A stretch of DNA of 64,000 bases, taken from NCBI GenBank assembly GCA_903844845.1, contig CAIMVG010000008.1, positions 12,672-76,671 of the forward strand. Direction: 5' to 3'. The notes beneath the pieces are model-generated. The model had not been told where the DNA came from. It worked only from the letters and a program-made list of their open reading frames with translations, and did no database searches. This stretch comes from an uncultured Dehalococcoidia bacterium (lineage in GTDB: Bacteria; Chloroflexota; Dehalococcoidia; Dehalococcoidales; UBA1222). Below, in pieces: positions 5,546 to 51,345 of this stretch. The position numbers were made by a program, and so were the translations under genes. Positions within the stretch are counted from its first letter, which is position 1; each line of letters begins with the position of its first letter.

Positions 5546-5789
5546 GCCATCAAAGGATTCAACATCAAGTAGTTTAACCTACCCAAACCCGTAAAAAGAG
5601 AGCCACGAAAACCAACCCGAGCGCTCTTTTCCCTCTGGTCGATATCATATATTTCATAATATCAAAATACTCTTTAAGTTCCATAAGAGCATTGACATTG
5701 ACTTGCCTTATAAGAAGGTTTATCTTATCATTAAAATGCTTAATAGCGCATTTAGGCTTATTTAAGTTAAACCACTTAAAAGGACATCC

Positions 5790-6326
5790 ATGGCTATCAA
5801 ATCGAAAAATAGCGATTCGGTTGGCGATGGTCTCGTTACGTTCCGCGACGTCGCCAGTGCGATGAAGGGCGAGCGTGTCCTAAGAAGTTCAGGCTACGAG
5901 GTCAAACTGGTAGCACCTCCCGCTGAACTGCGCCTGGGCTGCGACCTGGCGCTGGAGGTCAACCTGGTCGAGCAGGCGGGCATCGAGAGGGTCTTCACAG
6001 ATGAGGATGTAACCTTTGTAAGTTTCACACCCCTTTCCACTCATTCCTCACCGATGTGCGACATCGTCAAGGTGACCGATTTCGGCCAGTGGGTGATGAT
6101 TAAGTGCGGCAATATGAAGCTCTCTTTTGAGAAAGCCACCGGGAAAATCGTGAACGTCTCGGGCGGCGGCTGCCCCGACATACCCTACCTCAACGCCGAA
6201 ATGGTTGACAAGACCCTTACCGCTGCGCCGCATCCCAACGAACTGGGTTATACCCTGTGCGCCACCATGCTTGAGCGTGCCTACGAAGAAGCTCTGAACA
6301 TCTATAATGGAGATACCCGCTCATGA
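5790..6326 (+). CDS. DUF3343-like (putative S/Se carrier fold) protein with extra C-terminal domain
   Basis: N-terminal FRDVASAMKGERVLRSSGYEVKLVAPPAELRLGCDLAL resembles DUF3343. C-terminal half (GGGCPD) is unassigned. RBS AAGGA. The stop overlaps the next start (ATGA). Confidence 0.6.
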   Translation: MAIKSKNSDSVGDGLVTFRDVASAMKGERVLRSSGYEVKLVAPPAELRLGCDLALEVNLVEQAGIERVFTDEDVTFVSFTPLSTHSSPMCDIVKVTDFGQWVMIKCGNMKLSFEKATGKIVNVSGGGCPDIPYLNAEMVDKTLTAAPHPNELGYTLCATMLERAYEEALNIYNGDTRS

Positions 6327-7207
6327 TGCTGCTTTTCGGAACCATCCCGGATAAAAACCTGCCGATGACTTATGGCCAGGTGCGCCAGGAAGGCGATTAC
6401 CTCTACGCGGACGGCCAACGTTTTTCTCGCACCCAGGGCACAGGCGCCATGATCAGCGCGGCGCTGGCCATATGCAACTATTTCAAACTGGATCCCCCGC
6501 ATGTGCTGGTGGCAGGCGACATCGGAGACGGCAAAGGCACACGGGACATCTACAAATACCTGACCGAACATGTGGTCGAACTGGCACCCGCAGTGATCAC
6601 CATGCATTACAGCCTGCCTATCATGGCACTGCTGAAAAAATTGTGCGACACCATAAAAGGTTGCGAAAAGCGTCCATTCATGATCGCCGACGCCGGGGCG
6701 ATGTACGCTGCCAAGGGCGCCGGGTTGGCAACGGAATTCGATATCTTTACACCTGACACGTCCGAAATTGCTTTCCTGGCTGATCCGCAAGCTACACATC
6801 CGGCCTATATCTCGCATCATCTTCTTGCTTGCGATGCAGATAAAATTCCAGGCCAGATTGCAGATGCCTTCAAGAACAATAGCGCAGCCAAATTGCTTCT
6901 GGTGAAAGGCAAGACGGATTACGTGGCGCAGGCCAGAGAAATACTGGCTACCATCGATGAGCCCAACGTTCCTACCCTGGAACCTATAGGCGGCACGGGG
7001 GACACCATCACCGGCCTGGTTTCCGGCCTGGTATATGCCGGGATGGAACCCAAGAACGCTGCGATTTTTGCCTGCCGCACCAACCGCACGGCAGGGATTT
7101 TGGCCCGACCGACTCCCGCCACCAAAGTGAAGGATATAATAGACCAGTTCCCGGTGGTCTGCAGGGACTATTACGATGCATGGAACAAAAATGTAAAAAT
7201 ACTTTAG
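6323..7207 (+). CDS. YjeF_C / ribokinase-like small-molecule kinase or dehydratase homologue
   Basis: GGTGDTITGLVSGL resembles the GG(S/T)GDxLxG lid of NAD(P)HX-dehydratase-type kinases. Translationally coupled to the upstream gene. Confidence 0.55.
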   Translation: MMLLFGTIPDKNLPMTYGQVRQEGDYLYADGQRFSRTQGTGAMISAALAICNYFKLDPPHVLVAGDIGDGKGTRDIYKYLTEHVVELAPAVITMHYSLPIMALLKKLCDTIKGCEKRPFMIADAGAMYAAKGAGLATEFDIFTPDTSEIAFLADPQATHPAYISHHLLACDADKIPGQIADAFKNNSAAKLLLVKGKTDYVAQAREILATIDEPNVPTLEPIGGTGDTITGLVSGLVYAGMEPKNAAIFACRTNRTAGILARPTPATKVKDIIDQFPVVCRDYYDAWNKNVKIL

Positions 7208-7232
7208 TATTTTTGATAAAGGAGGGAAATAG

Positions 7233-7838
7233 ATGGCCAGATGGTTATCGAAAAAAGACCCCACCCCTTCGGCTCCCAAAAAGATACATACCAGCAAAAA
7301 CACGATGCCAACCCCTTTCATTCTTGTCAGCGCTTTTGCCTTGATATTGGGTCTGATCAGCTTCCCCAAATTCCCTTGCCCGACTTGCGACGGCACAGGG
7401 ATACTGGCTTCATCCCAGGGTTTAAAAGCCACGGTAGCCGCCTGTAATTTGATCGAAAGCTACATCCCCTTGACATGTTGCGACCACCCGCAGGTCCAAT
7501 ACGCTTATGATGTCAGTCTTTTGATAGAGAACGATGGAGCGAAAACTATTAACGGCACCGTAACCGTGAGTTTTTATGATATCGAGCCAGCACTCACTTC
7601 AAGCAAGGATGTAAATACAGCCGCGGAAGGTGTTTTCCCGGTACAAGTTGATGTACCCGGAGGCACAACTGTAACAGTTGACCAGCAACTTACATTCATC
7701 TCCGTATCTGATATATTGAACCAGCCGCATAGAGTGACGGTCCAATCCGGAAACGTAGAAACAAAGAACGCCTGTCCATTGTGCAACGGGACAGGCAAGC
7801 TGCCTTTTTATAGCTGGTTAGAGGCCCATATCAGATGA
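7233..7838 (+). CDS. Single-pass membrane protein with two DnaJ-type zinc-knuckle motifs
   Basis: AAGGAGGG RBS. TM helix PFILVSAFALILGLISF. CPTCDGTG near the helix and CPLCNGTG near the C-terminus. The stop overlaps the next start. Confidence 0.65.
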   Translation: MARWLSKKDPTPSAPKKIHTSKNTMPTPFILVSAFALILGLISFPKFPCPTCDGTGILASSQGLKATVAACNLIESYIPLTCCDHPQVQYAYDVSLLIENDGAKTINGTVTVSFYDIEPALTSSKDVNTAAEGVFPVQVDVPGGTTVTVDQQLTFISVSDILNQPHRVTVQSGNVETKNACPLCNGTGKLPFYSWLEAHIR

Positions 7839-8320
7839 AACTCAAGATAAACCCTAACTATATTGTCATCACAGGGTTCACAATCGGAATTGCTGCGGCG
7901 GCAGCCCAGGCTTTCTTTGATGTACAACCTCCGCAGGCATATGGAGTCTGTTTGATCGGTCATCCATCAATACTGGTCAAATGGTTTATGAACCACATCT
8001 TCGGAATGCATTTGCCAATAAGCACGGCATTTTTAGTTTATCCGTCTTTGCTGGTAGCAGGCATAACAGGTGGAGCTCTATTTTCATCTATAAAGAGCGG
8101 GGAATTCAAGACAACATTAAAGATGAAACCTGCCAGCACACGCAGCAAGTTCAATGCCATACTTTTTGGTTTTCTTGTGGCTAACTTTGGATTGATCGTC
8201 GGCGCCTGTCCCATACGAACCGCGCTCCTGGTAAGTTACGGAAGCGTATTAGGGGGCATAATGCTGGCAGCTATCATTTTTGGGGTTTTTCTGGCAACAC
8301 TCCGTTTACGTCGATCATAG
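7835..8320 (+). CDS. YeeE/YedE-family sulfur/selenium transport protein, N-terminal half of a split transporter
   Basis: Polytopic. Cys-containing motifs AYGVCLIGH and VGACPIRT. Confidence 0.7.
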   Translation: MKLKINPNYIVITGFTIGIAAAAAQAFFDVQPPQAYGVCLIGHPSILVKWFMNHIFGMHLPISTAFLVYPSLLVAGITGGALFSSIKSGEFKTTLKMKPASTRSKFNAILFGFLVANFGLIVGACPIRTALLVSYGSVLGGIMLAAIIFGVFLATLRLRRS

Positions 8321-8335
8321 AAAGGACCAATTATT

Positions 8336-8773
8336 ATGTTGGCTTTTATAGCGACTTTGGTGATAGGTTTGGTTCTGGGATATCTCGGGCAAAGGTCTCG
8401 TTTTTGCGCAGTAAGCGGTTTCCGGGATTGGTTTTTAATCCGTGATACTCGCCTGCTTAAAGGATATGGGGCGCTTTTAGCCGGCGGAGTGCTAGGGTAT
8501 GCATTTTTTAAACTTATAGGCGGGAAAATACTCAATTACCCCCTTGGAATGGATATAGGTACCGCAGGGGGAGCCGCAGTAATCGCCATTGCCGCAATCG
8601 GGATGGCATATTTTTCTACGCTGGCTGATGGCTGTCCATTCAGGCAACATGTAGCAGCAGCAACAGGCAGTACAACCAGCCTTTTATATTTGCTGGGTTT
8701 TTACACAGGCATAGTCTACTTTTTCCTGGTGACTACAAATATAGTGAGCATTATCTCGAAGTTAATAACCTGA
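8336..8773 (+). CDS. YeeE/YedE-family sulfur/selenium transport protein, C-terminal half
   Basis: RSRFCAVSGF and ADGCPFRQ motifs typical of the YeeE/YedE sulphur-transport domain. Polytopic. Confidence 0.75.
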   Translation: MLAFIATLVIGLVLGYLGQRSRFCAVSGFRDWFLIRDTRLLKGYGALLAGGVLGYAFFKLIGGKILNYPLGMDIGTAGGAAVIAIAAIGMAYFSTLADGCPFRQHVAAATGSTTSLLYLLGFYTGIVYFFLVTTNIVSIISKLIT

Positions 8774-8937: not shown

Positions 8938-10329
8938 TTATTCCCAGCCGAACGGCGGGAGATCCAGGTCCCAGAATTCATCAGGGTTTTTATTCAGGCC
9001 ATTTCCCATCAAGCCATCTAACATTTTGACAGCTTTGTCGAGAGACGGTGCGGTCGCGATTGCATTATTCAAGATATTCCTGAAAATGGTCCCGTTTATA
9101 CCCCGGGAAAGCGGGCAAACTGCGAAACAGGTACTACAGCCCTCGGAATAGCCCATGATCTTTATATTGGTTAAACACGCTGCTTCATCGCGATGCCAGC
9201 TCTTGATGCCTGTTTGCTGATAATCCCCCCGGATATTCCACGATGTTTCCGTGTCTTTGGGAATCGCCCCAGACGGGCAATGATCGGCGCATTTCTTACA
9301 TATGCGGCAAAAACGCATGACTCCGAAATCAACCGGTTTACCCGGAGCGAGCGGGAGGTCGGTGATAAGTTTGAACACCCTCTGTCTGACTCCATACACA
9401 GGGGTCACCATGTGCATCGTTCGGCTATGCTCTCCAAGTCCGGCCATAATACCGAACCCAACAGAGGAACCGAGGGAGTCATAAGGATTGGCTTCTCCCA
9501 AACCCATATAACCAAGCCCCCGAAGAAAAAGTTGCAACTGGCCCTGGATGATGCTTTTAAGGTTATATGCATTTTCGGTCGGCGCCATAATCATCTGCGT
9601 GGGGGCGCTTTGTACTAGCTGATCGGCCATGCGTATCGTGTAGACTATTACCCATCGTGCCTTCCTGGGTATGATCCGTTCGGTTTTTGTTTCCGACGCC
9701 TGTGTCGCATCCGAGAAGGTCAGCTTCAAGCCCTGCGACGCGCCGGTGCCTGTGTCATACGAATATACCAGCTTTTCCGTGGTAAGCGAGTCAAGTTCCA
9801 CGAAACCGACTTCGGCCGCCCCGTGAAAACGCATAAAAGCGCGAATCATCCTGGCGTTTTCCTCCGGTTTTCCTTCGTAGACGGGGACTCCGAGGTCCCC
9901 TGGTGTCTGGTTTGTCGTTGGCCCGATGAAGCTGGTCGGCGCGAAGTATGTCGCATTGACGAAAGCATCGTCTTTCAGAGTATAGCCAGGCGTATTTGCC
10001 TTGAGACGACTTAACCGGTTGTTTCTCTGGGCCTCCATGACGTGGAGATATTGTGAAGTTCCCAGGGCTTTCTGCAGGCCGCTGGCCCAGACTACCTTGC
10101 TGTAGTCGAAGCGGTTCATTGCAGTCCAGTCAATATCTACCGTCGGCTTTTCTACCTCTCGTATATAAGAGGGCCGCATGGAAACAGCCGCCGGGGATGC
10201 CATGATTTCGTCAAGGTCATGTACCGCCCGGGCAGGGAAAAGCACCGGCGCAGCACCGCATGCCAATGCTCCCAAACCGAGCGATTTGAGGAAATCCCGT
10301 CTGCTGATGCTCGAATGGTATTTATTCAA
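8938..10329 (-). CDS. rdhA: Reductive dehalogenase homologue, catalytic subunit (RdhA)
   Basis: Twin-arginine signal SRRDFLKSLGLGALACGA. C-terminal Fe-S motifs CRICKKCADHCP and CSTCFAVCP. 463 aa. Confidence 0.85.
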   Translation of the reverse strand: MNKYHSSISRRDFLKSLGLGALACGAAPVLFPARAVHDLDEIMASPAAVSMRPSYIREVEKPTVDIDWTAMNRFDYSKVVWASGLQKALGTSQYLHVMEAQRNNRLSRLKANTPGYTLKDDAFVNATYFAPTSFIGPTTNQTPGDLGVPVYEGKPEENARMIRAFMRFHGAAEVGFVELDSLTTEKLVYSYDTGTGASQGLKLTFSDATQASETKTERIIPRKARWVIVYTIRMADQLVQSAPTQMIMAPTENAYNLKSIIQGQLQLFLRGLGYMGLGEANPYDSLGSSVGFGIMAGLGEHSRTMHMVTPVYGVRQRVFKLITDLPLAPGKPVDFGVMRFCRICKKCADHCPSGAIPKDTETSWNIRGDYQQTGIKSWHRDEAACLTNIKIMGYSEGCSTCFAVCPLSRGINGTIFRNILNNAIATAPSLDKAVKMLDGLMGNGLNKNPDEFWDLDLPPFGWE

Positions 10330-10416
10330 GTTTATTCCGCCGGTCCTGTATTATCGCAGATTATCGGTCTTACGTCCCCTTTCAGATGCTTATCGAGGTT
10401 TGACTAACGACCTAAG

Positions 10417-10439
10417 TATATATTAGTATATATGCATAT
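10417..10439 (-). promoter_or_regulatory. AT-rich promoter block containing the palindrome ATATGCATAT, upstream of rdhA
   Basis: Gene-strand ATATGCATATATACTAATATATA follows TTGAAA. Near-identical block at 12993-13016 upstream of the FTR-like gene. Confidence 0.4.
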
Positions 10440-10641
10440 TTCAATATTAAATCCGAAAAATACCTCAGTTGCGGAGGGGGCTCCCTTCAAAACAAGGAGA
10501 CCATTAGTGCGAGCAATTTACAATATGCCGCTGATCAGTTAAAGGCGCAGGTAAGTACGCCCTATGTATATTTGACCAGCTTAGTTGAAACTTCCAATCG
10601 TCGCTGGATAGAATGTGGAATCAGAATCAAGAGAGAGAATT

Positions 10642-11238
10642 ATGCAATTTCGAAAATTTTTCACGGTAGTAGTTATAATGCTTGCAACTGTTTTAACAAG
10701 TGAGGCTTGCGGTGCGAATACTTCCATTGCCCCCACTACGCCCCAACCGACCGCCAAAACCGGTACGACGACATCAATTACTACAAAATCCGCTTCGCCT
10801 TCGACTCTTTCAGAAACAGTGGCGAATGTGACTCCGGTCCCGTCCAGTTCCGAACCCATCCCAACTGCCACCCCCTCGACAACACCGCCGGTTTCATCAA
10901 TCGAATTTTCAACTTACTCCACGCTTTCGACCAAGGGCACGACAGTCTATTACAACTACTGCGCACCTTGCCATGGGAGCACAGGGCAGGGAGCGAACGG
11001 GCCGGCCCTATGGAAGCCCGGCGGCACCCTGGGGCGAAGCGACAACGCGGTCTTCTTCGCCAATAACGCGGCGGACATGCTGGATTTTATTTCATATTTC
11101 ATGCCGCTGTATGCCCCGGGCAGCCTGTCGCGCAGTGATTACATCAATGTGACTTGTTTTCTTTTGATTCAATCTGCGGATGTTCAGCCGATGGACACAT
11201 TTGTCGAGAACCAGCTGAAAAATATCATTTTAAAATAA
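10642..11238 (+). CDS. Monohaem c-type cytochrome lipoprotein
   Basis: Signal peptide with lipobox LTSEAC. Thr/Pro-rich linker. Haem motif CAPCH with a Met ligand candidate (YFMPLY). ATG at 10642 after GAGAGAG (listed ORF starts at 10615). Confidence 0.8.
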   Translation: MQFRKFFTVVVIMLATVLTSEACGANTSIAPTTPQPTAKTGTTTSITTKSASPSTLSETVANVTPVPSSSEPIPTATPSTTPPVSSIEFSTYSTLSTKGTTVYYNYCAPCHGSTGQGANGPALWKPGGTLGRSDNAVFFANNAADMLDFISYFMPLYAPGSLSRSDYINVTCFLLIQSADVQPMDTFVENQLKNIILK

Positions 11239-11318
11239 TTGATGCATGTGATTTAATCGGCCGGCAATATGAGCACGTCTTTCAACGCTTTGCTGTAACT
11301 GAGGATTCTACTTCAAGG

Positions 11319-11945
11319 TTATACCATTTTAGGGGGTAACGTCTTCCGGGCTAGAATCAAAGTGATATTTCCATCTGAAACTAGCGTGGATTTCAGCATA
11401 GTCAATCCGTTTTTATCCAATATACGCATCAACCCTCCGTTGTTCAAAAAACCTTTGAAATTACGGAAATGCGCGACTCCGGCTATTCGCTCAATGATAC
11501 GGATTAGGAAACCAGTCAGCCTTCGAGGTAAGGGGACGCTGTAATCCATGAAAACAAGAAATCCATCCGGGCAAGTTACTCGTTTCATCTCGCTTACAAT
11601 CGCATCCACCAACGTCAACTCCTTATCATGCAAGGCCAGGGAGACAGAGGTGAAATCGAAGCTAGCGTCATCAAAGGGCATATGGGATGCGTCCCCTAAT
11701 ATGAATGTTTCCGAGGCCGCATCAGAATGTGCATAATATCGACGCGCTAAGTCGAGCATATGCGGATCGATGTCCACTCCAATGGCTATGATCCCTTTGC
11801 GGAGGTATTCATATACTTGCGCCCCGGTGCCGCAGCACACGTCCAGCACGCGATCATCAGGACGCATCCCACCGAACTCCGGCAGAAGTTTTCGCGCATC
11901 CCTTAGAATCGGATCTATTATGGTGGCGTAGTTGATGTGTAACAA
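11319..11945 (-). CDS. Class I SAM-dependent methyltransferase
   Basis: Motif I VLDVCCGTGAQ. UbiE/Methyltransf_11-like length. Confidence 0.85.
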   Translation of the reverse strand: MLHINYATIIDPILRDARKLLPEFGGMRPDDRVLDVCCGTGAQVYEYLRKGIIAIGVDIDPHMLDLARRYYAHSDAASETFILGDASHMPFDDASFDFTSVSLALHDKELTLVDAIVSEMKRVTCPDGFLVFMDYSVPLPRRLTGFLIRIIERIAGVAHFRNFKGFLNNGGLMRILDKNGLTMLKSTLVSDGNITLILARKTLPPKMV

Positions 11946-12051
11946 TCTAGCTTCTTACACTATACGTTATCCAATTACAGATCGAAGGGGTTTGCGAAGG
12001 CTCGATGTCTAGCGTTTCAAATATATCCACCATTCCCCCCTACCTATCATG

Positions 12052-12204
12052 TTATTTCCCGTACTGTTTCATGGTTATATCATCTTTGGCCCATCCCGTA
12101 TCTACCAGCACCAGCAGTGATTCTCCAGGATGTTGTCTCATAGCTTTTTGAGTCCTGACGATTGGAATGCCCCTGGAATAGCCCCTGACATTTACCTCTA
12201 ACAT
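12052..12204 (-). CDS. Small TusA/SirA-like ORF (50 aa) lacking the catalytic Cys
   Basis: Not in the ORF track because it is under 60 aa. GGAGG sits 6 nt before the ATG. VNVRGYSRGIPIVRTQKAMRQHPGESLLVLVD aligns with TusA [33 protein letters not shown], with CP replaced by RG. C-terminally short. Confidence 0.35.
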   Translation of the reverse strand: MLEVNVRGYSRGIPIVRTQKAMRQHPGESLLVLVDTGWAKDDITMKQYGK

Positions 12205-12298
12205 GTTAAGCCTCCGAAGTTATGCAGATACCAAAATATTTAAAATCAAGTAAATTAAATGTGCAATTGATGCGCGTCAACGACGCGCTAATCCGCTA

Positions 12299-12946
12299 TC
12301 AAGCTGTGGCCCTTGGAATTAATTCGACATGCCAGGTGTCACCCACCTTGGAACTACGAAAATTTAGCCCCTGTTTTCCGGCGAACTTACCGAGGTTTTC
12401 AACTTCAACATTGGTTTCTACTATCACTTCAAGCGTTTGGCCTCTCGCTTTGTTCAAGGCACGTTTGACCTGGTGTAGACTGTCCGGTACCGGCAGTCCT
12501 CGCGCCGGATCGATATGGGCACCGCGGGTATCCAGTATCCCGTTTTCCAGGTTGAGCGGGGTTCCCCGATATTCTTGCATCAGGCGTGTTTCGCCTTCCT
12601 TGAACCCCTCATCGGTTAAATCTCCTCTACCGAACAGCACACAATGGCATGAGCCGTGCTTTTGAATATCCTCTTGGGCAAATTTACAAGGGCACAGCAG
12701 CCGTTTATTTACCTCGGCATTTTCGCCAGGCTCGAAGCATGGGCAATAGCGTTTGCCAAACATACTTTCACTTTCTGCGATCCATATCTTCAGGTTGGTA
12801 TAAAACATCCAGTGCGGGTTTACCTTTAACCCTTTGGTAGCTGCATATTTCTTTATCCACACATCATGTTTCTTGATTTCCTTATGGTAGTCAATGTATC
12901 CGGAAAAGAACTCTTTCATCATGGGTGCCATTTCTTTTAATTTCAA
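12299..12946 (-). CDS. Ferredoxin:thioredoxin reductase catalytic-subunit-like protein fused to a Cys-less TusA-like domain
   Basis: CPC...CPC...CHC triad (RYCPCF, LLCPCKF, GSCHCVLF). C-terminal GLPVPDSLHQVKRAL...TLEVIVE resembles TusA without the CP cysteine. TTG start 7 nt after GGAGGAG. Confidence 0.75.
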   Translation of the reverse strand: MKLKEMAPMMKEFFSGYIDYHKEIKKHDVWIKKYAATKGLKVNPHWMFYTNLKIWIAESESMFGKRYCPCFEPGENAEVNKRLLCPCKFAQEDIQKHGSCHCVLFGRGDLTDEGFKEGETRLMQEYRGTPLNLENGILDTRGAHIDPARGLPVPDSLHQVKRALNKARGQTLEVIVETNVEVENLGKFAGKQGLNFRSSKVGDTWHVELIPRATA

Positions 12947-12992
12947 AGTTGTTCTCCTCCTAGATGTTTATCAAGCCCGACCAGATACTTAT

Positions 12993-13016
12993 TATATATT
13001 TAGAATATATGCATAT
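12993..13016 (-). promoter_or_regulatory. AT-rich promoter block containing the palindrome ATATGCATAT, upstream of the FTR-like gene
   Basis: Gene-strand ATATGCATATATTCTAAATATATA. One mismatch and one 1-nt indel over about 24 nt versus 10417-10439. Confidence 0.4.
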
Positions 13017-13108
13017 ATGAGTCATGTTGGCTCATGTCGAAAACAGTAGAGATTTGGTTAACGGGAATTTTCATTTCTCTTTTTATACGTAAACGATATT
13101 CCCCTTTA

Positions 13109-13627
13109 TCACTTTATCTTGTTCAGTGCGTTCTGAAGCTCGTTCTGAGTTTGGAACGCGCCGCGTCCGATGTACTGGATAATCCCATCTCGGTTGATGA
13201 AAATAGCAGTGGGGATGGCAGAGACGCCATATTCCAGCGCCACCGAGGAAGCGGTGTCCAACAGAACAGGCACGTCATATTTGTGGGACTGCATAAAAGC
13301 CGAAATGACCTTACTCGAATCATTAATACCAACGGTGAGTATAACTACCCCATCGGCTTTGGATGCTTCCTGATCGTATGCGGTTTGAATAAGGGGAAAC
13401 TCCCCTATGCAGTACCCTCACGTTGTGGACCAGAAGTTTATCATTACGGGTTGCCCGAGCAGGGCTGATAGCGTTAGCGTGTTTCCATCCAAATCCTTGA
13501 GCGTGAAATCGCTGGCCTTGTTGCCAACGCGGTTTCCGAATTCCGTGCTGCTTCCTGTGGTGGCACACCCCGGAATAAGCGAAATTAAAATCGATACTCC
13601 TATCAATGCAGCAACTATTTTTCTCAT
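13109..13627 (-). CDS. ResA/TlpA-family thiol:disulfide oxidoreductase lipoprotein with predicted selenocysteine (UxxC)
   Basis: ORFs 13418-13627 and 13109-13294 share one frame, and the 123 nt between them are open. The only interruption is TGA at 13418-13420 (complement). Read-through gives INFWSTT-U-GYCIGEFP, aligning with ResA NFWGTWCEPCKKEFP. Lipobox LIPGC. Lies 7 nt downstream of ccdA. Confidence 0.8.
13388..13408 (-). other. SECIS-like hairpin downstream of the in-frame UGA
   Basis: RNA: UGA-GGGUACUGC-AUAGGGG-AGUUU-CCCCU(U)AU. The apical loop begins 16 nt after the UGA and has G at loop position 2. Confidence 0.5.
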
Positions 13628-13634
13628 TATTATC

Positions 13635-14324
13635 CTAACCTTTCAGGTAGAGGAAGCTGAGCTTGCCGAGTGATATTAGTACCCCAGCAACCACCAGCAA
13701 CCCTCCACTGCCAAAATAAATCCAGCGGCTATAGCGGCCGATGCGTTTTAGCATGGGTGTTAATCTGCTGAAAAATGCTCCTATCAATAAAAATGGCAGC
13801 CCCATTCCCAAGGAATAGGCCGCGAGGAGCAAAGCTCCTCGCCCTGCCGTACTGGAATTTAAGGCCAGGGTAAGCACGCTGCCCAGTAAGGGGCTCAGGC
13901 ATGGTGTCCAGGCCACGGTGAAAGCTGCTCCTACAATGAAAGAACGGATATAACCGCTCCTACGGCCCGTTTCCGGTGAAAGGCGTTTTTCGAAATTGAG
14001 CCACGGGATAAAACCAGCTCCCAGCATGAAAAGCCCAAAGAAGATTAACAGACCTCCAGATATCTTCTTCACCACCGCTGAATTTGGATTGATGCTAATG
14101 CCAGCCAGCCCAGCCAATGCGCCTGTTAAAGTGAACACCAGGCTCATTCCGACAACGAAACTGAGGGCGTGTAAGAAGAGAGGCCAGCGGCTTTCATCTT
14201 TCCTCTCCAAAACGTCGGGGCCGGCCAGACTGGCGAGGTATATCGGCACCATGGGGAGAACGCAAGGCGTTATAAAAGAGGCAATGCCTGCAGCGAATGC
14301 GGCCCAGACGGTGATGTTATCCAT
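13635..14324 (-). CDS. ccdA: Cytochrome c biogenesis / thiol-reductant transfer protein CcdA (DsbD family)
   Basis: Six-TM protein with the two conserved Cys in TPCVLPMVP and TPCLSPLL. Confidence 0.9.
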   Translation of the reverse strand: MDNITVWAAFAAGIASFITPCVLPMVPIYLASLAGPDVLERKDESRWPLFLHALSFVVGMSLVFTLTGALAGLAGISINPNSAVVKKISGGLLIFFGLFMLGAGFIPWLNFEKRLSPETGRRSGYIRSFIVGAAFTVAWTPCLSPLLGSVLTLALNSSTAGRGALLLAAYSLGMGLPFLLIGAFFSRLTPMLKRIGRYSRWIYFGSGGLLVVAGVLISLGKLSFLYLKG

Positions 14325-14364
14325 CTATGCAATATCCCAACGAAACACTGTTTTTAGTCTGCAT

Positions 14365-16782
14365 TTAATCGGTCTTAAATTTGCGTATTAAAAGTACCTT
14401 AACCTGGTCGTTGATCAGGAAAGTCACTAACAGTGTATAAGCGAGTATCGTAAACGTAGGCGCAAAGCCCAACGGCGCGAGTTCCAGAACGCCTACGAGT
14501 GATATTAACAGCACCAGCAAGACTTCGGTCAAAACCGTGATGCCGAGCATCCTGCTGGGACGTGACTCCCAGAAATGGCCGCGTTCGCGCACGACCATGA
14601 TAGTAAATATTCCCGCCAGGTTAAGATAAGTGAACCCGAAAGTGTAGATTTTGTCAGCGTTCCCCTTCAAGTGGAACATTGCCAGTGATGCCATCGTTAG
14701 AATAACCCCTTCGATGATCATCAGAACGCCGAGCCATCCGCCAACTCCGAACAATCTCGCGACTTTAAATGAATCGGGCTTCGCAGAAAGCCTCACCTTA
14801 TCGGACGATATCGCCATCGAGCCGAAGTCTCCCAAGAATAACATTATAACCGTGCCGGTTATCGATAGCATGAACGAGCGGGTCAATAGCAGCATTATGA
14901 CGATGTACCCGATGATGTTCGACTTTCGGGCGACCATCATCAATGCCCAGCTGTATATCCGCTGGTAGATAGTTCTGGATATGTTGACCATCGTAATTAT
15001 CCCGCCGAGCCCGTCTGCGGTTAGAATGGCGCTCGCGGAGTCTTTGGCCACGTCTGCAGAGTTCTTAACGGCTATGCCGACTTCCGCCTGACCCAGAGCG
15101 GGAGCGTCATTCACCCCGTCGCCCGTCATACCGACGATGTGCCCCAGGCGCTGGAGAGCCTTGACTATTGTGAACTTATCCTCCGGGTAAATCTGTGCGA
15201 TCCCATGGGTGTCTTCAATCATCAAGTCGACTCTTTTGGCCAGCCCTTCACCTTCCACGACTTTCGGCATCGTTGTGATATTGTCGCCTAATCCTATTTG
15301 GCGCGCGATGTTTTTTGCGATGGGTAGCGCGTCGCCGGTAAGCATTTTAACGGATATCCCGAGTTCCCGAAGCTTATCGAGTGTTTCGCGTGTATCGGGT
15401 CTTATTCTGTCCGCCACCCCCACCAAGCCGACAATCTCAAGACTGGCCCTTTCATCGCCTCTGGCCACTGCAATGACCCGTAGACCATTTTCGGAAAGCG
15501 CTTCAGCCTGTTTGGTGAGTGCTTCCGCATCCTTTTCCGCAACATGGCAGACAACGCACAGACTATCGACCGAACCCTTACCTACGTAGAAGGTTTTGCC
15601 ATTGTTTTCGATTTTGGCTTCGGTCATCCTGTTCTTGGGGTTAAAAGGCACGAATCCGGTTTGAACGTAAGGTTCCAGAGAGACACCGGACTCTTTCGCA
15701 GCTTTAAGAAACGCGATATCGATGGGGTCGTGATTTGCCTCTTTCGAAGATAGTGAGCCGAAGAGTAACACATCGGAATTGGTGAACCCATTCAGTGGGA
15801 CGGTCTCTTCTACAAAAAGCTTGTTCATCGTGACAGTACCGGTCTTGTCTACGCATAGCACGTCCATGGTGGCCGCGTCTTCACTGGCGCTGAGTCTTGT
15901 CACCAGTACACCACGTTTGGCAAGCACGCCTGAACCCAGCGCCATGTTAACGGTAAACATGGTCGGCATGGCTACCGGCACGGACGCTACGAGCAATACC
16001 CCTGCCAGGGGTAACAGCAAAGTCATTTTGAAGCCTGCAAACAGCGCAAATATGAACACTACCAAGATCGATGCAAGCACTATCATGGCTAGCCGACGCG
16101 CAACCCGAGCCGTTATCTCCTCCATGTGGAGTTTTGGTTTGGCCTGTTGAAGCAGCGAGATCGTCTTCCCGAAATATGTCTTGGTTCCGATGGCATGGAC
16201 GACTCCAGTGGCTTCTCCGTTCTTGATGGCTGACCCCGAATAGGCTATCTCACCAACCGATTTCTCCACGTTTATGGATTCACCGGTGAGGGCCGACTGG
16301 TCGAGCCCAAGGAAACCGTCCATTATCTTTATATCCGCCGGCAGGAAGTCACCTATCCTGACGCGGACGACGTCTCCGGGGACGAGTTCTCTGGCCGGGA
16401 CAGTCACCCACTTCCCATCTCTTTTCACGCGGCTTTGGATGCGCAGTTTTTGCTTTAATAGGCCCATTGCTGCTTTTGCTTTACCTTCGCGCCAGAGGGA
16501 CATCCCGGCGTTGAACAATAGAAGCCCCAGAATAACCAGCGCGTCTACATACTTACCGAGTATCAGTGTGACAATTGTTGTGGCCTCGAGCATCCAGGGC
16601 ACAATGCCCCAGAACCGCTTTTTAAGTCTTGAGAGGAAGCTTTCTTTCTTTTCAGGTACCTCGTTGTAACCATGACCGGCAAGTCTCTTTTGGACTTCCT
16701 GAGTTGTTAAACCATTTTCCAGATCCGTATCTTCTAATCCTGTTTGGGTTTCCAAATTATTCAAAAGCTCACTCCCATCCAA
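14365..16782 (-). CDS. P-type cation-transporting ATPase (type III H+/Mg2+-pump-like)
   Basis: TGES, phosphorylation site CVDKTGTVT, and hinge MTGDGVNDAPAL. 805 aa. Confidence 0.9.
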   Translation of the reverse strand: MDGSELLNNLETQTGLEDTDLENGLTTQEVQKRLAGHGYNEVPEKKESFLSRLKKRFWGIVPWMLEATTIVTLILGKYVDALVILGLLLFNAGMSLWREGKAKAAMGLLKQKLRIQSRVKRDGKWVTVPARELVPGDVVRVRIGDFLPADIKIMDGFLGLDQSALTGESINVEKSVGEIAYSGSAIKNGEATGVVHAIGTKTYFGKTISLLQQAKPKLHMEEITARVARRLAMIVLASILVVFIFALFAGFKMTLLLPLAGVLLVASVPVAMPTMFTVNMALGSGVLAKRGVLVTRLSASEDAATMDVLCVDKTGTVTMNKLFVEETVPLNGFTNSDVLLFGSLSSKEANHDPIDIAFLKAAKESGVSLEPYVQTGFVPFNPKNRMTEAKIENNGKTFYVGKGSVDSLCVVCHVAEKDAEALTKQAEALSENGLRVIAVARGDERASLEIVGLVGVADRIRPDTRETLDKLRELGISVKMLTGDALPIAKNIARQIGLGDNITTMPKVVEGEGLAKRVDLMIEDTHGIAQIYPEDKFTIVKALQRLGHIVGMTGDGVNDAPALGQAEVGIAVKNSADVAKDSASAILTADGLGGIITMVNISRTIYQRIYSWALMMVARKSNIIGYIVIMLLLTRSFMLSITGTVIMLFLGDFGSMAISSDKVRLSAKPDSFKVARLFGVGGWLGVLMIIEGVILTMASLAMFHLKGNADKIYTFGFTYLNLAGIFTIMVVRERGHFWESRPSRMLGITVLTEVLLVLLISLVGVLELAPLGFAPTFTILAYTLLVTFLINDQVKVLLIRKFKTD

Positions 16783-26257: not shown

Positions 26258-26486
26258 AAATCACACCTCCAGTTAAACGGCAAGCATAAGTTAACCGCAT
26301 AAGAATATAGCACGTGCCCAGAGCAAGGACCATAGACTTTTGCGGATAAATTGGAAAGTTCACACCAACTGATACGCCAGTCGGGGATCCTATTGAACTG
26401 CGATGTGATTCCCTATATAATTGCCCAATTCCATCCCGGCTCGCCTTGAAAGAGCGGAAATTCTCCGGTTTTATGAGAGGTGCATC

Positions 26487-28706
26487 ATGGCAGCTATGCG
26501 GACAAGGCCTAAATCACTCGCAGGACGCGTCAAGTGGCTTTTCACCATGGACGGACTCCCCGCATTAATCTCCCTGATCCTGGGTATCGTCATCGGGTAT
26601 TTCCTCAACGGTATCGTGGGGCTTGTGGTGGGAACTCTTACCGGCCTGGCCGTGTTGAAACTTTTCAAGCGCCTGCCTTTACGTTTTTCGCCCTGGCAGG
26701 CGGTGGTGATCGATTGGTCACCTGTACTGGCGAAGCTGTGTTTTTCACTGGCGTTTCTTTTACCGTTCGCCGACTACATGATGCTGCCGGACAACATCCA
26801 TAACCCCAATACCCTGCCCAAATACCTCAGCATCATCTTCGTGATACCCAAGAACCTCTTTCTGAAACCGACAGGGGATATATTCCCGGGTTTCGTTTTC
26901 ATCGTCATAATCGCCGTGGTCCTCATGTACTGGGGCAGCCTGAACCTCGGCAAGGTGAAGGGCCTGATCCTGGCATTGCTGGGCCTGCTGCTTTACACGA
27001 TGTCCCCGACGATCACATCGACGATCAACGGCGACGCGCGCCTGCGCATCATCGGCGCATTTTTCGGGATCGGCTACTATTTCGCATGGATAGCCATACT
27101 GCTGATTCTCGCTTCCAAAATACTGAAGCGCTTCCTTAAGGTCAGGCACGCCCCCGCAAAAATGGCCGGCGTGCTGAACCTTTTACCTCCCGTGGTAGCC
27201 CTGGGCGCATTGAGCCACTTCATGCACGGCCCGTCCGGGCATTCTTCCTTGTTCGCGATGTTCGATTTTGAAAGCGAGCATCATATGTGGGCGTCTTTTA
27301 TATCTGCCGGCGTTTCCGGCTTCAGCTCATCCGCCATCGTGGACGGGGCCGATGAAGGGGATGATTCCGGCGATTCAGATGATTCGTCCGATTCTGAAGA
27401 TTCGGCCCCTCCCTACCAGGCGCCTGAAGACTATGGCCCGTCGATCTCCACCAATCCCAATGACCCGCCGGGAACCACCGTCCAGGAGCATCCCGACGGC
27501 AGCATCACGAAGGTAAGGCCCGACGGCACTACTTCAACTCTCTTCCCTGATGGAACAGGCGTGGCGACACTCCCGGACGGCACCAAAGGCGTCCTGAGCA
27601 ATGACGGGGCCGCGGTTTTCACGCTCCCCGACGGAACCAAGCAAACACAGTATACCGACGGAACTGTTTACGTAGAAGGCACCGATGGGGAAAAGTACGT
27701 CGAGTACCCCGACGGCACCAAGAAGGATTGGACCCCCGATGGGACCCTAACCGTCGAAAAGCCCAATGGTGATTATGAAATCACCACCGCAGACGGCAAA
27801 ACCGGCGGCGTCAAGCAAAACGAAGACGGCAGTACAGATGTTACCTCTCCTTTCGGCGGCACTCTTCATTGCCCGAAAGAAGGCAATCCCGAAGGCACCC
27901 TCACCACCAAAGATGGAGACGTCATCTCTATGAATGGGGACGGCACGGGAAGCGTGACTTCCTCCAATGGCAAGCTGGATATAGACAAAGACGGGAATGT
28001 GTCCGGAACCTACGATGACGGTAAGGGCACCACGGCGACCTGGGGGAAAGACGGCTCCGAAGAGATCCATACTGCGGATGGCGACAATATCATCTCCAAT
28101 CAAGACGGCATAAAAGCCAATTTCCATGACGGTTCGTACATCAACGGCGATGCCGACGGCAATATCACAAGTGCCCACGTCAATACCCCCGAGGGTACCA
28201 TCGACGTCAACACGGACGGGCAGGGTGTCACCCACATCAAAGACGACAAGGGCAACTGGGTCGATGTAAAGGACGGCGCCGCCAGCGGCGCACATATCAA
28301 AGACGAGCAGGGCACCGTTGACATCAATACCGACGATAAGGGCGGGGTACACGTAAAAGACGACAAGGGCAACACGATGGACGTCAACAAGGACGGCTCC
28401 GGCCAAACCAAAGACGCCGACGGAAACGTTGCCGAACAGGATAAGGACGGAAACGCGTCTTTAACTACTAAAGACGGCGTCAAGTGGGTTGCGCCGAAAG
28501 ACGGCTCCGGTTTCATCACCGACAAGAAAGGCAACAGGATCGACATGGGCAAAGACGGGTCGCTGGACGTTAAAGACTCCAGCGGGAAAGTAACACACTA
28601 TACCGCCGACGATGTTGGGCAGATGACGGCACAGGCAGTCAAAGACAACCCGGGAGTCGTCAACCCCTTCGACATTTTTAAGGGAGGTAAAAACAATGGG
28701 AAATAG
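26487..28706 (+). CDS. Large polytopic membrane protein with acidic linker and about 400 aa of PDGT/KDG beta-strand repeats
   Basis: ATG at 26487 after GAGAGG. About 7 TM helices. DEGDDSGDSDDSSDSEDS linker. Dozens of 9-11-aa repeats (PDGSITKVRPDGTTSTLFPDGTGVATLPDGTKGV...KDDKGNWVDVKDG...). Confidence 0.8.
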   Translation: MAAMRTRPKSLAGRVKWLFTMDGLPALISLILGIVIGYFLNGIVGLVVGTLTGLAVLKLFKRLPLRFSPWQAVVIDWSPVLAKLCFSLAFLLPFADYMMLPDNIHNPNTLPKYLSIIFVIPKNLFLKPTGDIFPGFVFIVIIAVVLMYWGSLNLGKVKGLILALLGLLLYTMSPTITSTINGDARLRIIGAFFGIGYYFAWIAILLILASKILKRFLKVRHAPAKMAGVLNLLPPVVALGALSHFMHGPSGHSSLFAMFDFESEHHMWASFISAGVSGFSSSAIVDGADEGDDSGDSDDSSDSEDSAPPYQAPEDYGPSISTNPNDPPGTTVQEHPDGSITKVRPDGTTSTLFPDGTGVATLPDGTKGVLSNDGAAVFTLPDGTKQTQYTDGTVYVEGTDGEKYVEYPDGTKKDWTPDGTLTVEKPNGDYEITTADGKTGGVKQNEDGSTDVTSPFGGTLHCPKEGNPEGTLTTKDGDVISMNGDGTGSVTSSNGKLDIDKDGNVSGTYDDGKGTTATWGKDGSEEIHTADGDNIISNQDGIKANFHDGSYINGDADGNITSAHVNTPEGTIDVNTDGQGVTHIKDDKGNWVDVKDGAASGAHIKDEQGTVDINTDDKGGVHVKDDKGNTMDVNKDGSGQTKDADGNVAEQDKDGNASLTTKDGVKWVAPKDGSGFITDKKGNRIDMGKDGSLDVKDSSGKVTHYTADDVGQMTAQAVKDNPGVVNPFDIFKGGKNNGK

Positions 28707-40767: not shown

Positions 40768-41535
40768 CTACTTGATAACCAGCACGGGGAAAAAGATCTG
40801 CCAGGCCAATAGCGCCTTGGCGGTCAGGCTGAGGATGATATACACCTTTTCACCGAAGAGATAATCGCGCCAAGGCCCCACCTTTTTGTACTGCAAGATC
40901 ATATTGACGGCGAAGCAGTTGAAGAAGATGAAGAGCGAGATGATGATGCCGTAGACGAATCCGGGAGGCGATACGTTCAGGCCCGGAGCGATAGTGTAGA
41001 TGACGACCGCCACCCAGGGGATGGCCCCGGCGAAGCAGCCCATCCAGAAGGGCAGAAGGTTTTTGTTGCCCGGCTTCTCATATTTCTCCTGCAGAGCGCC
41101 AAAGAGTATCATGCTGGCGTTGACTCCGAAGATGCCCAGCAGGGCGGCGATATCGCTGATGCCCACGATCTGGGAGATGAGCACTATCATCAAAGACGAA
41201 CTGAAGAAATACTCTATCCAGCGCCCGTAGTTGCGGCTCTCCAGCAGGTTTCGCTTGTACCAGGGGAAAACCCAGGGAGAGGCGATGCTCAATAAGGCCA
41301 GGGCCGATATGGTCAGGAAGGCGAAAACGCCCCAGCCGGTGGCGATATTGAATAACTGGTGAAGCGCAGGAGCAGTGCCGGGAGGCCCGGCCATGAAGGT
41401 GGCGGTCACCGGCAGGGAGAAATTGTTGGTGAGTACGGCGATCATGACCGCTTGAACGGCGAGTATCAAACCGACCACGATGTTCCAGACACGCAACTTC
41501 TTGACTTGCTTTTCTACAGATTGATCAACATCCAT
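40768..41535 (-). CDS. Heliorhodopsin
   Basis: Collinear with heliorhodopsin 48C12 as I remember it: RWIEYFFSSS (counter-ion Glu), FGVNASMILFGALQEKY, LLPFWMGC, PGFVYGIIISLF, and the Schiff-base Lys in ILSLTAKALLAWQIF. ATG at 41535 is 6 nt after AAGGAGGG. Confidence 0.9.
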   Translation of the reverse strand: MDVDQSVEKQVKKLRVWNIVVGLILAVQAVMIAVLTNNFSLPVTATFMAGPPGTAPALHQLFNIATGWGVFAFLTISALALLSIASPWVFPWYKRNLLESRNYGRWIEYFFSSSLMIVLISQIVGISDIAALLGIFGVNASMILFGALQEKYEKPGNKNLLPFWMGCFAGAIPWVAVVIYTIAPGLNVSPPGFVYGIIISLFIFFNCFAVNMILQYKKVGPWRDYLFGEKVYIILSLTAKALLAWQIFFPVLVIK

Positions 41536-41591
41536 ACTTTTCCCTCCTTTTGACGAAACTCTACCACACATTGAAACATTTTATATCGGAA

Positions 41592-41999
41592 CTATGATAT
41601 TGCCCTGGCGATAAAATAGCCTGCCGATGCGACCGCGGCTGAAAGTACGGTGCCCCACGCGATATCAACGACGGTCAGTATAGCCGGCCAGTTATTAAGG
41701 GTTGCCAGATTGCTGAGGTCATAGGTGGCATAGGCCACCATCCCGAGGAGCCCTCCGGCCAGCATGGCGCGCAGCCATGAGCCTTTATCGACGGCCGGAA
41801 GAACGACCAGCACCAGCATCCCGACTATAAAGATAAAATAAAATAATATCGCCGGCGCCCAGTTTACTTTGTCGCTCATCAATCCTGCCAAACGGGGCTT
41901 GTAAAAACGTGAATTCATCACGCTGAGCCATATCAAGTCGATGCCGAAACAAACCGCGAGTGTGGAGAAATATAACACGAGTGTTTTAAAAAAACCCAT
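41592..41999 (-). CDS. DUF2177 membrane protein
   Basis: YDLSNLATLNNWPAILTVVDIAWGTVLSA is typical of DUF2177. Lies 56 nt upstream of the heliorhodopsin gene on the same strand. Confidence 0.8.
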   Translation of the reverse strand: MGFFKTLVLYFSTLAVCFGIDLIWLSVMNSRFYKPRLAGLMSDKVNWAPAILFYFIFIVGMLVLVVLPAVDKGSWLRAMLAGGLLGMVAYATYDLSNLATLNNWPAILTVVDIAWGTVLSAAVASAGYFIARAIS

Positions 42000-48925: not shown

Positions 48926-48942
48926 GATTGCAGCAGCCCTGA

Positions 48943-51326: not shown

Positions 51327-51345
51327 AACTCAAAATGATACAGGC

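Follow-up and report, generated by a model that had tools for sequence, protein, structure and literature searches.

A five-gene module with a split YedE-type channel in a Dehalococcoidia bacterium: a possible variant operon for selenium uptake and trafficking

A five-gene module on a Dehalococcoidia contig

A 64,000-nt stretch of DNA from an uncultured Dehalococcoidia bacterium (contig CAIMVG010000008.1; the whole stretch is referred to here as the window) carries, at positions 5790-8773, five co-directional genes, designated g1 to g5, for a cysteine-bearing carrier, a kinase-like enzyme, a single-pass membrane protein with two CxxCxGxG zinc knuckles, and the two halves of a channel of the YeeE/YedE type. 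An initial annotation, made from the letters of the DNA, had read these genes as a module for the import and delivery of sulfur or selenium, a reading that the comparative genomics described below supports, with selenium the favoured element. The interpretation developed here, in which we place slightly better than even confidence, is that the module serves selenium uptake and trafficking as a variant of the YedE-type operon. Its features are as follows, with protein lengths in amino acids (aa).

5698-5726, + strand: weak candidate for a sigma-70-like promoter, TTGACT-17-TATCTT, 5' of g1, from a consensus scan
5790-6326, + strand: g1, 178 aa, cytoplasmic Cys carrier with a DUF3343 and a putative DUF8182 domain
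6171-6173, + strand: Cys128 codon (GGGCPD loop), proposed to encode the active-site residue of carrier g1
6323-7207, + strand: g2, 294 aa, ribokinase-fold (Carb_kinase/ThiM-like) enzyme
6989-7003, + strand: GGTGD nucleotide/anion-hole motif of g2 (aa 223-227), invariant in the family alignment and aligned with the GTGD of ThiM and YjeF_C
7220-7226, + strand: Shine-Dalgarno sequence AGGAGGG in the g2-g3 gap, read from the sequence, with the start codon of g3 6 nt on
7233-7838, + strand: g3, 201 aa, type II single-pass membrane protein with two CxxCxGxG knuckles
7835-8320, + strand: g4, 161 aa, N-terminal half of the split YedE-type channel
8336-8773, + strand: g5, 145 aa, C-terminal half of the split YedE-type channel

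The initial annotation had described the five genes as joined by ATGA-type overlaps or very short gaps, and the open reading frame (ORF) listing and the sequence bear this out: stop and start codons overlap as ATGA between g1 and g2 (6323-6326) and between g3 and g4 (7835-7838), and spacers of 25 nt and 15 nt separate g2 from g3 and g4 from g5, respectively. The motifs that it quoted for the channel halves (AYGVCLIGH and VGACPIRT in g4, RSRFCAVSGF and ADGCPFRQ in g5) and the two CxxCxGxG knuckles that it gave for the third gene (CPTCDGTG and CPLCNGTG) are all present in the translations. The hexamer pair 5' of g1 is listed as a candidate promoter only, because such matches are not enriched over shuffles. 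No convincing operator palindrome was found upstream of the operon, and a scan of the window at Rfam gathering thresholds gave zero riboswitch or known-RNA matches.

A YedE-type channel in two halves

Among the families that had been proposed for the module, DUF3343 (g1), Carb_kinase (g2) and Sulf_transp (g5) are all matched above their cut-offs; the match of g4 to Sulf_transp is weak, at 14.3 bits against a cut-off of 27. For g5, the Pfam hidden Markov model (HMM) of Sulf_transp (PF04143) scores 31.5 bits against the same cut-off, and the best NCBIfam model is seleno_YedE (TIGR04112), with 65 bits (E 6.6e-18, model positions 185-301) against 26 bits for TsuA. Half-channel g4 reaches 11.6 bits on TIGR04112 and has TsuA as its best NCBIfam match, and its placement in the family comes from collinear alignment with the N half of full-length YedE members. 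In such alignments g4 covers residues ~10-150 of full-length YedE and g5 residues ~195-330, in agreement with the earlier proposal that the two half-size genes together represent one YeeE/YedE channel. Each half has 3-4 predicted transmembrane (TM) helices (four in g4) and two Cys motifs, AYGVC and GACPIR in g4, RSRFCAVSGFRD and DGCPFR in g5. The g4 protein shares 36-46% identity with N halves from other split systems, and the two halves are 36-46% identical to their counterparts in the type B operons described below and 25-36% identical to the N and C parts of full-length YedE.

The splitting of YedE into two genes is itself already known. A two-gene YedE was described in archaea in 2015 (PMC5322559), and half-size proteins of the PmpAB type have been proposed to act as heterodimers (PMC11582611). 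As in the window, adjacent half-size genes in these systems match the N and C halves, the central helix is left uncovered, and a heterodimer is proposed. PmpA and PmpB carry one Cys each, whereas g4 and g5 each retain two Cys motifs, and the window pair further differs from the archaeal split YedE and PmpA/PmpB in having g3 ahead of it and a carrier-kinase pair in the same module.

The carrier and its probable selenocysteine form

The initial annotation had called the first gene DUF3343-like, which holds for aa 14-76 (Se_S_carrier/DUF3343, PF11823; Pfam HMM, 48.5 bits, 6e-13, cut-off 25) but is incomplete, the C-terminal DUF8182 domain (PF26554) being the most conserved part of the protein. 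DUF8182 is assigned through precomputed annotation of homologues 56-99% identical to g1, in which it stands beside PF11823; this annotation covers the homologues only, and a local Pfam scan of g1 gave no PF26554 match. In g1 the putative domain lies at aa ~85-178 and holds an invariant loop, SGGGCPDIP, with Cys128, as well as Cys157. Across 93 carriers, Cys128 and Cys157 are kept in 100% and Cys51 of the DUF3343 domain in 98%, and Cys90 is not conserved. The AlphaFold2 (AF2) model of g1 has a mean confidence (predicted local distance difference test, pLDDT) of 84.7. As a fold search with this model found no PDB match better than E 0.03, DUF8182 appears to be a domain without a recognisable solved relative; a PDB sequence search with g1 likewise yielded nothing useful.

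In 6 of 101 carrier genes, all of them in type B operons, an in-frame TGA replaces the Cys128 codon. The replacement is always TGA and never TAA or TAG, and the frame remains conserved as far as a stop codon just ahead of the kinase gene. These putative selenocysteine (Sec) forms share a conserved hairpin, beginning 16 nt past the TGA, that has a GGUCU loop and one compensatory pair and resembles a selenocysteine insertion sequence (SECIS) element. The TGA-form carrier genes, candidates for selenoprotein genes, are the following.

L016:12927-13468
L019:10139-10689
L020:9976-10529
L021:8490-9034
L022:9929-10474
L074:9886-10424

The exchange of Cys for Sec marks residue 128 as a reactive centre and connects the family with organisms that use Sec. 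The published reviews compared that tabulate prokaryotic selenoprotein families hold no entry for the Sec form of the carrier, which may be a selenoprotein family absent from the lists compared.

A kinase-like partner

The second gene encodes a protein whose aa 115-266 match Carb_kinase (PF01256; Pfam HMM, 40 bits, cut-off 27). On the NnrD equivalog model TIGR00196 it scores 39.7 bits, far below the cut-off of 129.85, and PDB matches to NnrD have E-values of 0.2 or worse. PDB sequence searches with g2 gave nothing useful outside the GTGD region. Because the g2 family profile finds ThiM 3DZV as its sole PDB match, around GTGD, g2 is best placed in a distinct subfamily of the ribokinase superfamily. 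This subfamily is like NnrD/YjeF_C and ThiM in fold family, in the GTGD anion-hole motif and in its above-threshold Carb_kinase match, but its N-terminal third is not alignable with theirs, it has invariant motifs of its own (QGTGAM, GDIGxG and FLADPxATHPAY), and it has an obligate DUF8182 partner. The elements TPDxSE and KGxxDY are also invariant in the family alignment, and we take them to be YjeF_C-like. The family is large and highly conserved, with 2042 clusters returned, cyanobacteria included, the top 120 of them at least 63% identical, and the closest relatives of g2 come from metagenome-assembled genomes (MAGs) of Dehalococcoidales; together with the reductive dehalogenase gene that follows the module, this points to a Dehalococcoidia-like source. 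The motifs of g2 suggest an active enzyme, and its chemistry would be a step that uses ATP or ADP on a selenium species.

Conserved operons and selenium genes

The initial annotation had regarded a ribokinase-like gene within such a module as an unusual insertion; instead, the carrier-kinase pair is the conserved core of the system. A scan of species-representative genomes found the kinase family at at least 552 genome loci, of which the best 80 were mapped with phmmer. Nearly all of these 80 show the order yedE (TIGR04112)-carrier-kinase-tusA, often followed by a gene for a 200-aa TusA-domain protein (yedF). The operon yedE-carrier-kinase-tusA-yedF(-selD) is defined here as type A; its flanking genes reach 387-405 bits on seleno_YedE (cut-off 200) and 218 bits on YedF (TIGR03527, cut-off 110). 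A paralogous arrangement, type B, has the order carrier-kinase-YedE N half-YedE C half and often lies right after a type A operon. Type C is the arrangement of the window, in which g3 is inserted before the split halves. The window has the orthologous and translationally coupled carrier and kinase that characterise type A, and its g2 shares 81-85% identity with type A kinases from close relatives (L009, L010). Five related loci (L001-L005) repeat the module gene for gene, with order and overlaps unchanged, and the arrangement cannot be put down to chance because it is kept there with a g3 only 60-63% identical.

Many Dehalococcoidia genomes carry a type A and a type B operon in tandem (L011, L013, L016, L019-L023 and L074). 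The type B kinases are ~41-47% identical to g2 of the window, which hints at two substrates or two transport directions.

Linkage among the components is also seen as overlap and as fusion. In 56 of 99 pairs the stop of the carrier gene and the start of the kinase gene share 4 nt. YedE is fused to DUF3343 and DUF8182 at L006:5367-6998, L015:6238-8004, L017:6367-7998 and L018:6349-7998, the hosts of such YedE-carrier fusions being Scytonema, Nostoc, Calothrix and one gammaproteobacterial MAG, and a Dehalococcoidia MAG encodes a fusion of kinase and TusA (L033:8001-9095).

The genes around these operons point to selenium. When ORFs around the 80 loci were clustered and the clusters named with NCBIfam, selD (TIGR00476, 347 bits) was found in 26 loci, co-directional with the kinase gene and 300-1700 nt downstream of it, and a gene for the regulator LysR_Sec_metab (NF040786, 267 bits) lay upstream in 25, divergently in 15 of the 16 loci with strand recorded, which also carry selD. 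Further neighbours were selA (8 loci), selB (8), the formate dehydrogenase alpha gene fdhA (10) and fdhE (9). It is because related operons adjoin selD that we read the module as one for selenium uptake and delivery, with gene context favouring selenium as the chalcogen handled. Consistent with this, YedE, YedF, DUF3343 and LysR_Se were predicted to be selenium-related in 2015 (PMC5322559), and selenium starvation of M. maripaludis raises the yedE transcript by 5.3 log2 (PMC11097638).

A zinc-knuckle membrane protein linked to split YedE channels

We agree with the initial annotation that a zinc-knuckle protein beside YeeE/YedE is undescribed. The g3 protein begins with a basic tail (aa 1-28, with 6 K/R against 1 D/E), continues through a TM helix at aa 29-47 and ends in an acidic domain 154 aa long, and hydropathy and charge analysis predict an N-in, C-out topology. 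A beta-sandwich at aa ~58-175, extracytoplasmic by prediction, bears a conserved CC at aa 82-83 and is clasped by the knuckles CPTCDGTG (aa 49-56) and CPLCNGTG (aa 181-188). In the AF2 model the core of the sandwich reaches a pLDDT of 70-89 and the knuckles at its ends are poorly modelled; a Foldseek/PDB search with the model was uninformative, returning generic Ig-like glycosidase domains only (E >2e-3). As in the zinc knuckles of DnaJ and anti-TRAP, the two CxxCxGxG motifs may jointly hold one metal ion; they differ from those knuckles in flanking a beta-sandwich and in lying on the predicted outer face of the membrane. The score of g3 on DnaJ_CXXCXGXG (PF00684) is 21.7 bits, below 32.7, with two motifs ~125 residues apart rather than four repeats, and all its HMM matches to CxxCxGxG families are sub-threshold. 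Within the family Cys49, Cys83 and Cys184 are nearly invariant, and a Zn(Cys)4 site is not universal, since Cys52 and Cys181 are dispensable in distant members.

The family is rare. Homologues at least 55% identical to g3 fall into just 10 clusters, and searching 1.84 billion representative proteins exhaustively with a profile recovered 68 g3-family clusters, most of them of 170-220 aa with the same architecture; a metagenome scan with an alignment of close g3 homologues gave no confirmed locus. Relatives down to ~30% identity directly precede split YedE halves and in most cases overlap them by 4 nt. Six relative loci were checked for what lies downstream, and these hold the distant members with readable context (P0131/L089, P0133/L091, P0136/L092-93, P0135/L090 and P0140/L094; L092 and L093 are two assemblies of one locus). 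A g3-like gene lies directly upstream of split YedE in the window and at L001-L005, L089, L091 and L092/L093, and the evidence is partial at L090 and L094, where the contig ends within the first YedE half and only its start is seen (2/6 loci). Because the readable distant members directly precede both halves, g3 emerges as a dedicated partner of split YedE channels. Neither carrier nor kinase was found in the flanks of L089 and L091 (5-6 kb upstream, 1.5-2.5 kb downstream). At L092, genes for a NapH-like protein, a carrier and a kinase lie downstream of the g3-like gene and split YedE, a gene order unlike that of the window, and the association of g3 with the carrier-kinase pair arose in at least two gene orders. 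The g3 protein may be a previously unrecognised receptor or redox subunit that acts outside the cytoplasm and is peculiar to split YedE channels. Its TM helix was also considered as the missing central helix of full-length YedE, an idea that was rejected because type B halves, which have no g3, are of the same length as halves with g3.

Some further observations concern g3 loci. The groundwater contig L092:1-10588 (also L093), with its g3-like gene, split YedE, NapH/MauN-type membrane ferredoxin, carrier and kinase, carries this block directly after a gene for a molybdenum hydroxylase of the xanthine dehydrogenase family, and links to membrane redox chemistry and to selenium-dependent molybdenum hydroxylases are possible. 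In the contig collection, 103 blocks are indexed as holding exactly the g3 protein of the window. Strains represented by L095 and L096 encode an identical g3 protein and share the gene order of the window through rdhA, diverging soon after; relative to window positions 10400-14400, a ModA-like binding protein, DUF364 and Thioredoxin_3 replace the FtrB-TusA, ResA(Sec) and ccdA genes described below.

A possible route for selenium

On the reading that the module serves selenium uptake, g4 and g5, whose homology and collinearity with YedE are plain from the alignments, would assemble as a heterodimeric YedE-like channel. Anchored by its one helix, g3 would present its Cys-bearing beta-sandwich on the outer face, at the channel mouth, and, in keeping with its linkage and predicted topology, could capture or thiol-condition external selenium species and pass them to the channel cysteines, which would move them inward. 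In the cytoplasm g1 would take selenium on its GGG-Cys128-PD loop with the help of Cys51 and Cys157, probably as a Cys-S-Se adduct. The g2 enzyme would then spend ATP or ADP on the carrier-bound or incoming species, trapping trace selenium that enters by a passive channel and lending that channel directionality at trace concentrations. In most relatives the product would pass via TusA/YedF to SelD; the window organism, whose module comes without tusA, yedF and selD, presumably encodes these partners elsewhere in its genome. Of this scheme, the domain identities, the gene linkage and fusions, the Cys/Sec exchange and the placing of selD are observed, whereas what is transported, in which direction, and what g2 does to it are inferred.

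The scheme can be set beside three known systems. The candidate selenium system YedE/YedF (FdhT/FdhU; TIGR04112, TIGR03527; Lin et al. 2015, PMC5322559) likewise has a YeeE/YedE-fold channel with Cys motifs and a link to DUF3343, TusA-like proteins, SelD and the LysR_Se regulator, and g1 and g2 are orthologues of genes in YedE/YedF operons. The window differs in that its channel is split, diverged and below the TIGR04112 cut-off, that tusA, yedF and selD are lacking from the module, and that the extracytoplasmic g3 is added; DUF8182 and the kinase-like partner go unmentioned in accounts of that system (PMC5322559, PMC9312934, PMC13188914). TsuA/TsuB (YeeE/YeeD; PDB 6LEO, 8K1R; PMC7449682) belong to the same channel superfamily, with functionally important cysteines, and both systems combine a passive channel with a cytoplasmic Cys protein that traps the substrate (PMC11582611). 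The sequence relation is weak (E 3.6e-5, with a full-length type A YedE), the partner in the window is a DUF3343-DUF8182 carrier with a kinase rather than a lone TusA-like YeeD, and the context of the window type is selenium, whereas that of TsuA/TsuB is cysteine synthesis. The YTD cluster (YedE-TusA-DsrEFH type II; PMC13293266) is alike in passing from a YedE-like channel to a cytoplasmic relay of Cys sulfur transferases; the relay is DsrEFH there and DUF3343-DUF8182 plus kinase here, and the YTD context is dissimilatory sulfur metabolism.

A literature search for DUF8182, PF11823 or the kinase in connection with YedE or selenophosphate found the carrier-kinase pair undescribed within the library searched, and within the same library the kinase-like partner, DUF8182, the Sec-form carrier and g3 are unmentioned in the literature compared. 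We put forward tentatively, at less than even confidence, the broader proposal that the DUF8182 carrier and its ribokinase-fold partner perform an unrecognised but widespread ATP-dependent step of selenium assimilation between YedE and SelD, with a catalytic Cys or Sec in the loop GGG[C/U]PD.

Neighbouring genes in the window

The module is followed in the window by a convergent gene for a reductive dehalogenase homologue and, farther on, by a predicted selenoprotein gene. These and other genes of note are listed here.

8938-10329, - strand: reductive dehalogenase homologue with a twin-arginine translocation (TAT) signal (TIGR02486, 237 bits), convergent, 165 nt past g5
12052-12204, - strand: TusA-like ORF of 50 aa, truncated, with SRGIP for SCPIP and the active-site Cys lost; probably a relic
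12299-12946, - strand: fusion of FtrB (ferredoxin-thioredoxin reductase beta) with a TusA/YedF-like part that likewise lacks the active-site Cys
13109-13627, - strand: ResA/TlpA-like lipoprotein with Sec (FWSTT-U-GYC), in-frame TGA; NCBIfam ResA 3.4e-15; outside the operon
13635-14324, - strand: ccdA (Pfam), with the ResA-like Sec gene directly downstream
26421-28706, + strand: 761-aa protein whose sole Pfam match is to Tcp10_C repeats, unusual in a bacterium
40768-41571 and 41592-41999, both - strand: heliorhodopsin gene (Pfam 1.1e-94) with a DUF2177 membrane protein next to it; the genome encodes a reductive dehalogenase as well
48293-52146, + strand: DUF169, a radical SAM/SPASM enzyme and two tandem DedA/VTT-domain membrane proteins

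A selenoprotein about 5 kb from the module had been predicted in the initial annotation, and the ResA/TlpA-like gene (13627-13109 in its reading direction) answers to it: homologues at L001 and L004, which there directly adjoin the five-gene module, conserve the TGA and both its flanks. A hairpin lies 8 nt past the TGA in the window gene; its fold energy does not stand out from that of shuffles (z = -0.07), and because of this the Sec assignment is drawn from the conserved TGA. The role of the selenoprotein may lie in the maturation of cytochrome c, or in holding external thiols, g3's among them, in the reduced state. In the neighbouring fusion the FtrB part belongs to a family known for double selenoproteins, of which it is an all-Cys form. 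A P-type ATPase gene and a FUR-family gene also lie nearby in the window. DedA proteins are reportedly linked to selenite uptake in other bacteria. DUF169 appears in the STRING list for YedE (PMC5322559).

Selenium weighed against sulfur and metalloids

A number of points tell against selenium uptake as the role of the module. Neither the 64-kb window nor the type C loci hold selD, selA, selB, tusA or yedF, and the only tusA-like ORF nearby (12052-12204) is degenerate; a full-length TIGR04112 yedE is likewise absent from the window. The split channel scores below the TIGR04112 equivalog cut-off of 200 bits even when g4 and g5 are concatenated (66.5), the g3 model has a low overall confidence (pLDDT 60.5), the substrate and activity of g2 are putative, and sequence is unable to separate selenium from sulfur. 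An ArsR gene with an ECCVCE site stands upstream at L001-L004, a pattern more typical of inducible detoxification than of scavenging. From the literature, DUF3343 also occurs in genomes without SelD (PMC5322559), and deletion of yedE in M. maripaludis had no clear selenium-uptake phenotype (PMC11097638).

Some of these points would suit the import of sulfur (thiosulfate, polysulfide or zero-valent sulfur), in which g4 and g5 would bring in reduced sulfur, g1 would act as a persulfide carrier and g2 would activate the sulfur for assimilation or cofactor synthesis, in an organism presumed to be without assimilatory sulfate reduction. The sole relatives characterised in both structure and function are the thiosulfate channels TsuA/TsuB (PDB 6LEO/6LEP; PMC7449682) and the sulfur importers of the SoxT/PmpAB type (PMC11582611), TsuA is the best NCBIfam match of g4, there is no selenium-specific subfamily of DUF3343 (PMC5322559), and the ArsR family includes persulfide and sulfite sensors, a weak BigR match having been seen; the absence of selD from the window also fits. 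We nevertheless judge sulfur import unlikely. Orthologous carrier-kinase pairs keep company with TIGR04112 YedE, with YedF and with co-directional selD, selA or selB, and neither cys genes nor genes for sulfur oxidation are their neighbours; the seleno_YedE model gives g5 65 bits, that of TsuA 26; and the Sec-form carrier, together with Sec-protein genes beside the module, ties the system to Sec-using organisms.

The regulators upstream of related modules bear on a second alternative, that the system handles or detoxifies metalloids by exporting or sequestering excess selenite, tellurite or arsenite, under ArsR-type induction, g1 being the thiol sink. In relatives of the five-gene module (L001-L004) the gene immediately upstream is usually of the ArsR type, and ArsR-family regulators with the invariant three-Cys, metalloid-type site ECCVCE were recorded at the following positions.

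L001:6175-6534
L003:135-560
L004:1468-1836
L020:5247-5606, - strand
L022:5283-5642, - strand

The last two stand upstream of tandem operons. Lin et al. had suggested that YedE might export excess selenium (PMC5322559), and the P-type ATPase and FUR-family gene near the module in the window could be counted on the same side. Against this, the window has no ArsR gene upstream of g1, nor any remnant of one by tblastn, and the module encodes no efflux-type energy coupling. Most relatives have the selenium-metabolism LysR regulator and are co-operonic with selD, a consumer of selenium, and yedE of M. maripaludis is induced by selenium starvation (PMC11097638). Metalloid handling is accordingly given a low probability, below that of sulfur import.

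SelD has a Gly-rich Cys/Sec loop, which the loop of g1 may resemble. We think it least probable of all that g1 and g2 are themselves a selenium-activating enzyme, an alternative or auxiliary synthetase of the selenophosphate type whose Cys/Sec loop would present a perselenide for the kinase to form a Se-P bond: the invariant GGG[C/U]PD loop with its Cys/Sec exchange, the intact GGTGD phosphotransfer motif, the obligate pairing and translational coupling of the two genes, and the type C and cyanobacterial loci without selD nearby would fit, but no structural or sequence similarity to SelD was found, the Se-P chemistry is putative, and the pair is no general replacement for selD because selD is co-operonic with it in 26 of the 80 loci.

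Implications for selenium acquisition

Prokaryotes must take up selenium selectively from trace amounts and bring it to SelD without harm; how they do so is an open question, and a 2026 review states that no specific high-affinity selenium transporter is known (PMC13188914). The operons described here supply a concrete set of genes for this task, namely a YedE channel, whole or split, a carrier with three cysteines, the key one of which can be Sec, an enzyme of the kinase type, TusA/YedF and SelD. If the proposed role is correct, the carrier and kinase could be the missing mechanism of high-affinity selenium trapping, and the kinase implies an energy-consuming chemical step that is missing from current models of selenium trafficking. 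The g3 protein, for its part, suggests that some channels have an outward-facing, Cys-rich partner. For the Dehalococcoidia, bacteria relevant to bioremediation, the window would mean that a dedicated supply of trace selenium is encoded beside a reductive dehalogenase gene. Two under-described components are brought to light, the DUF8182 carrier with its kinase and g3, and through them selenium uptake and delivery may become approachable by experiment.

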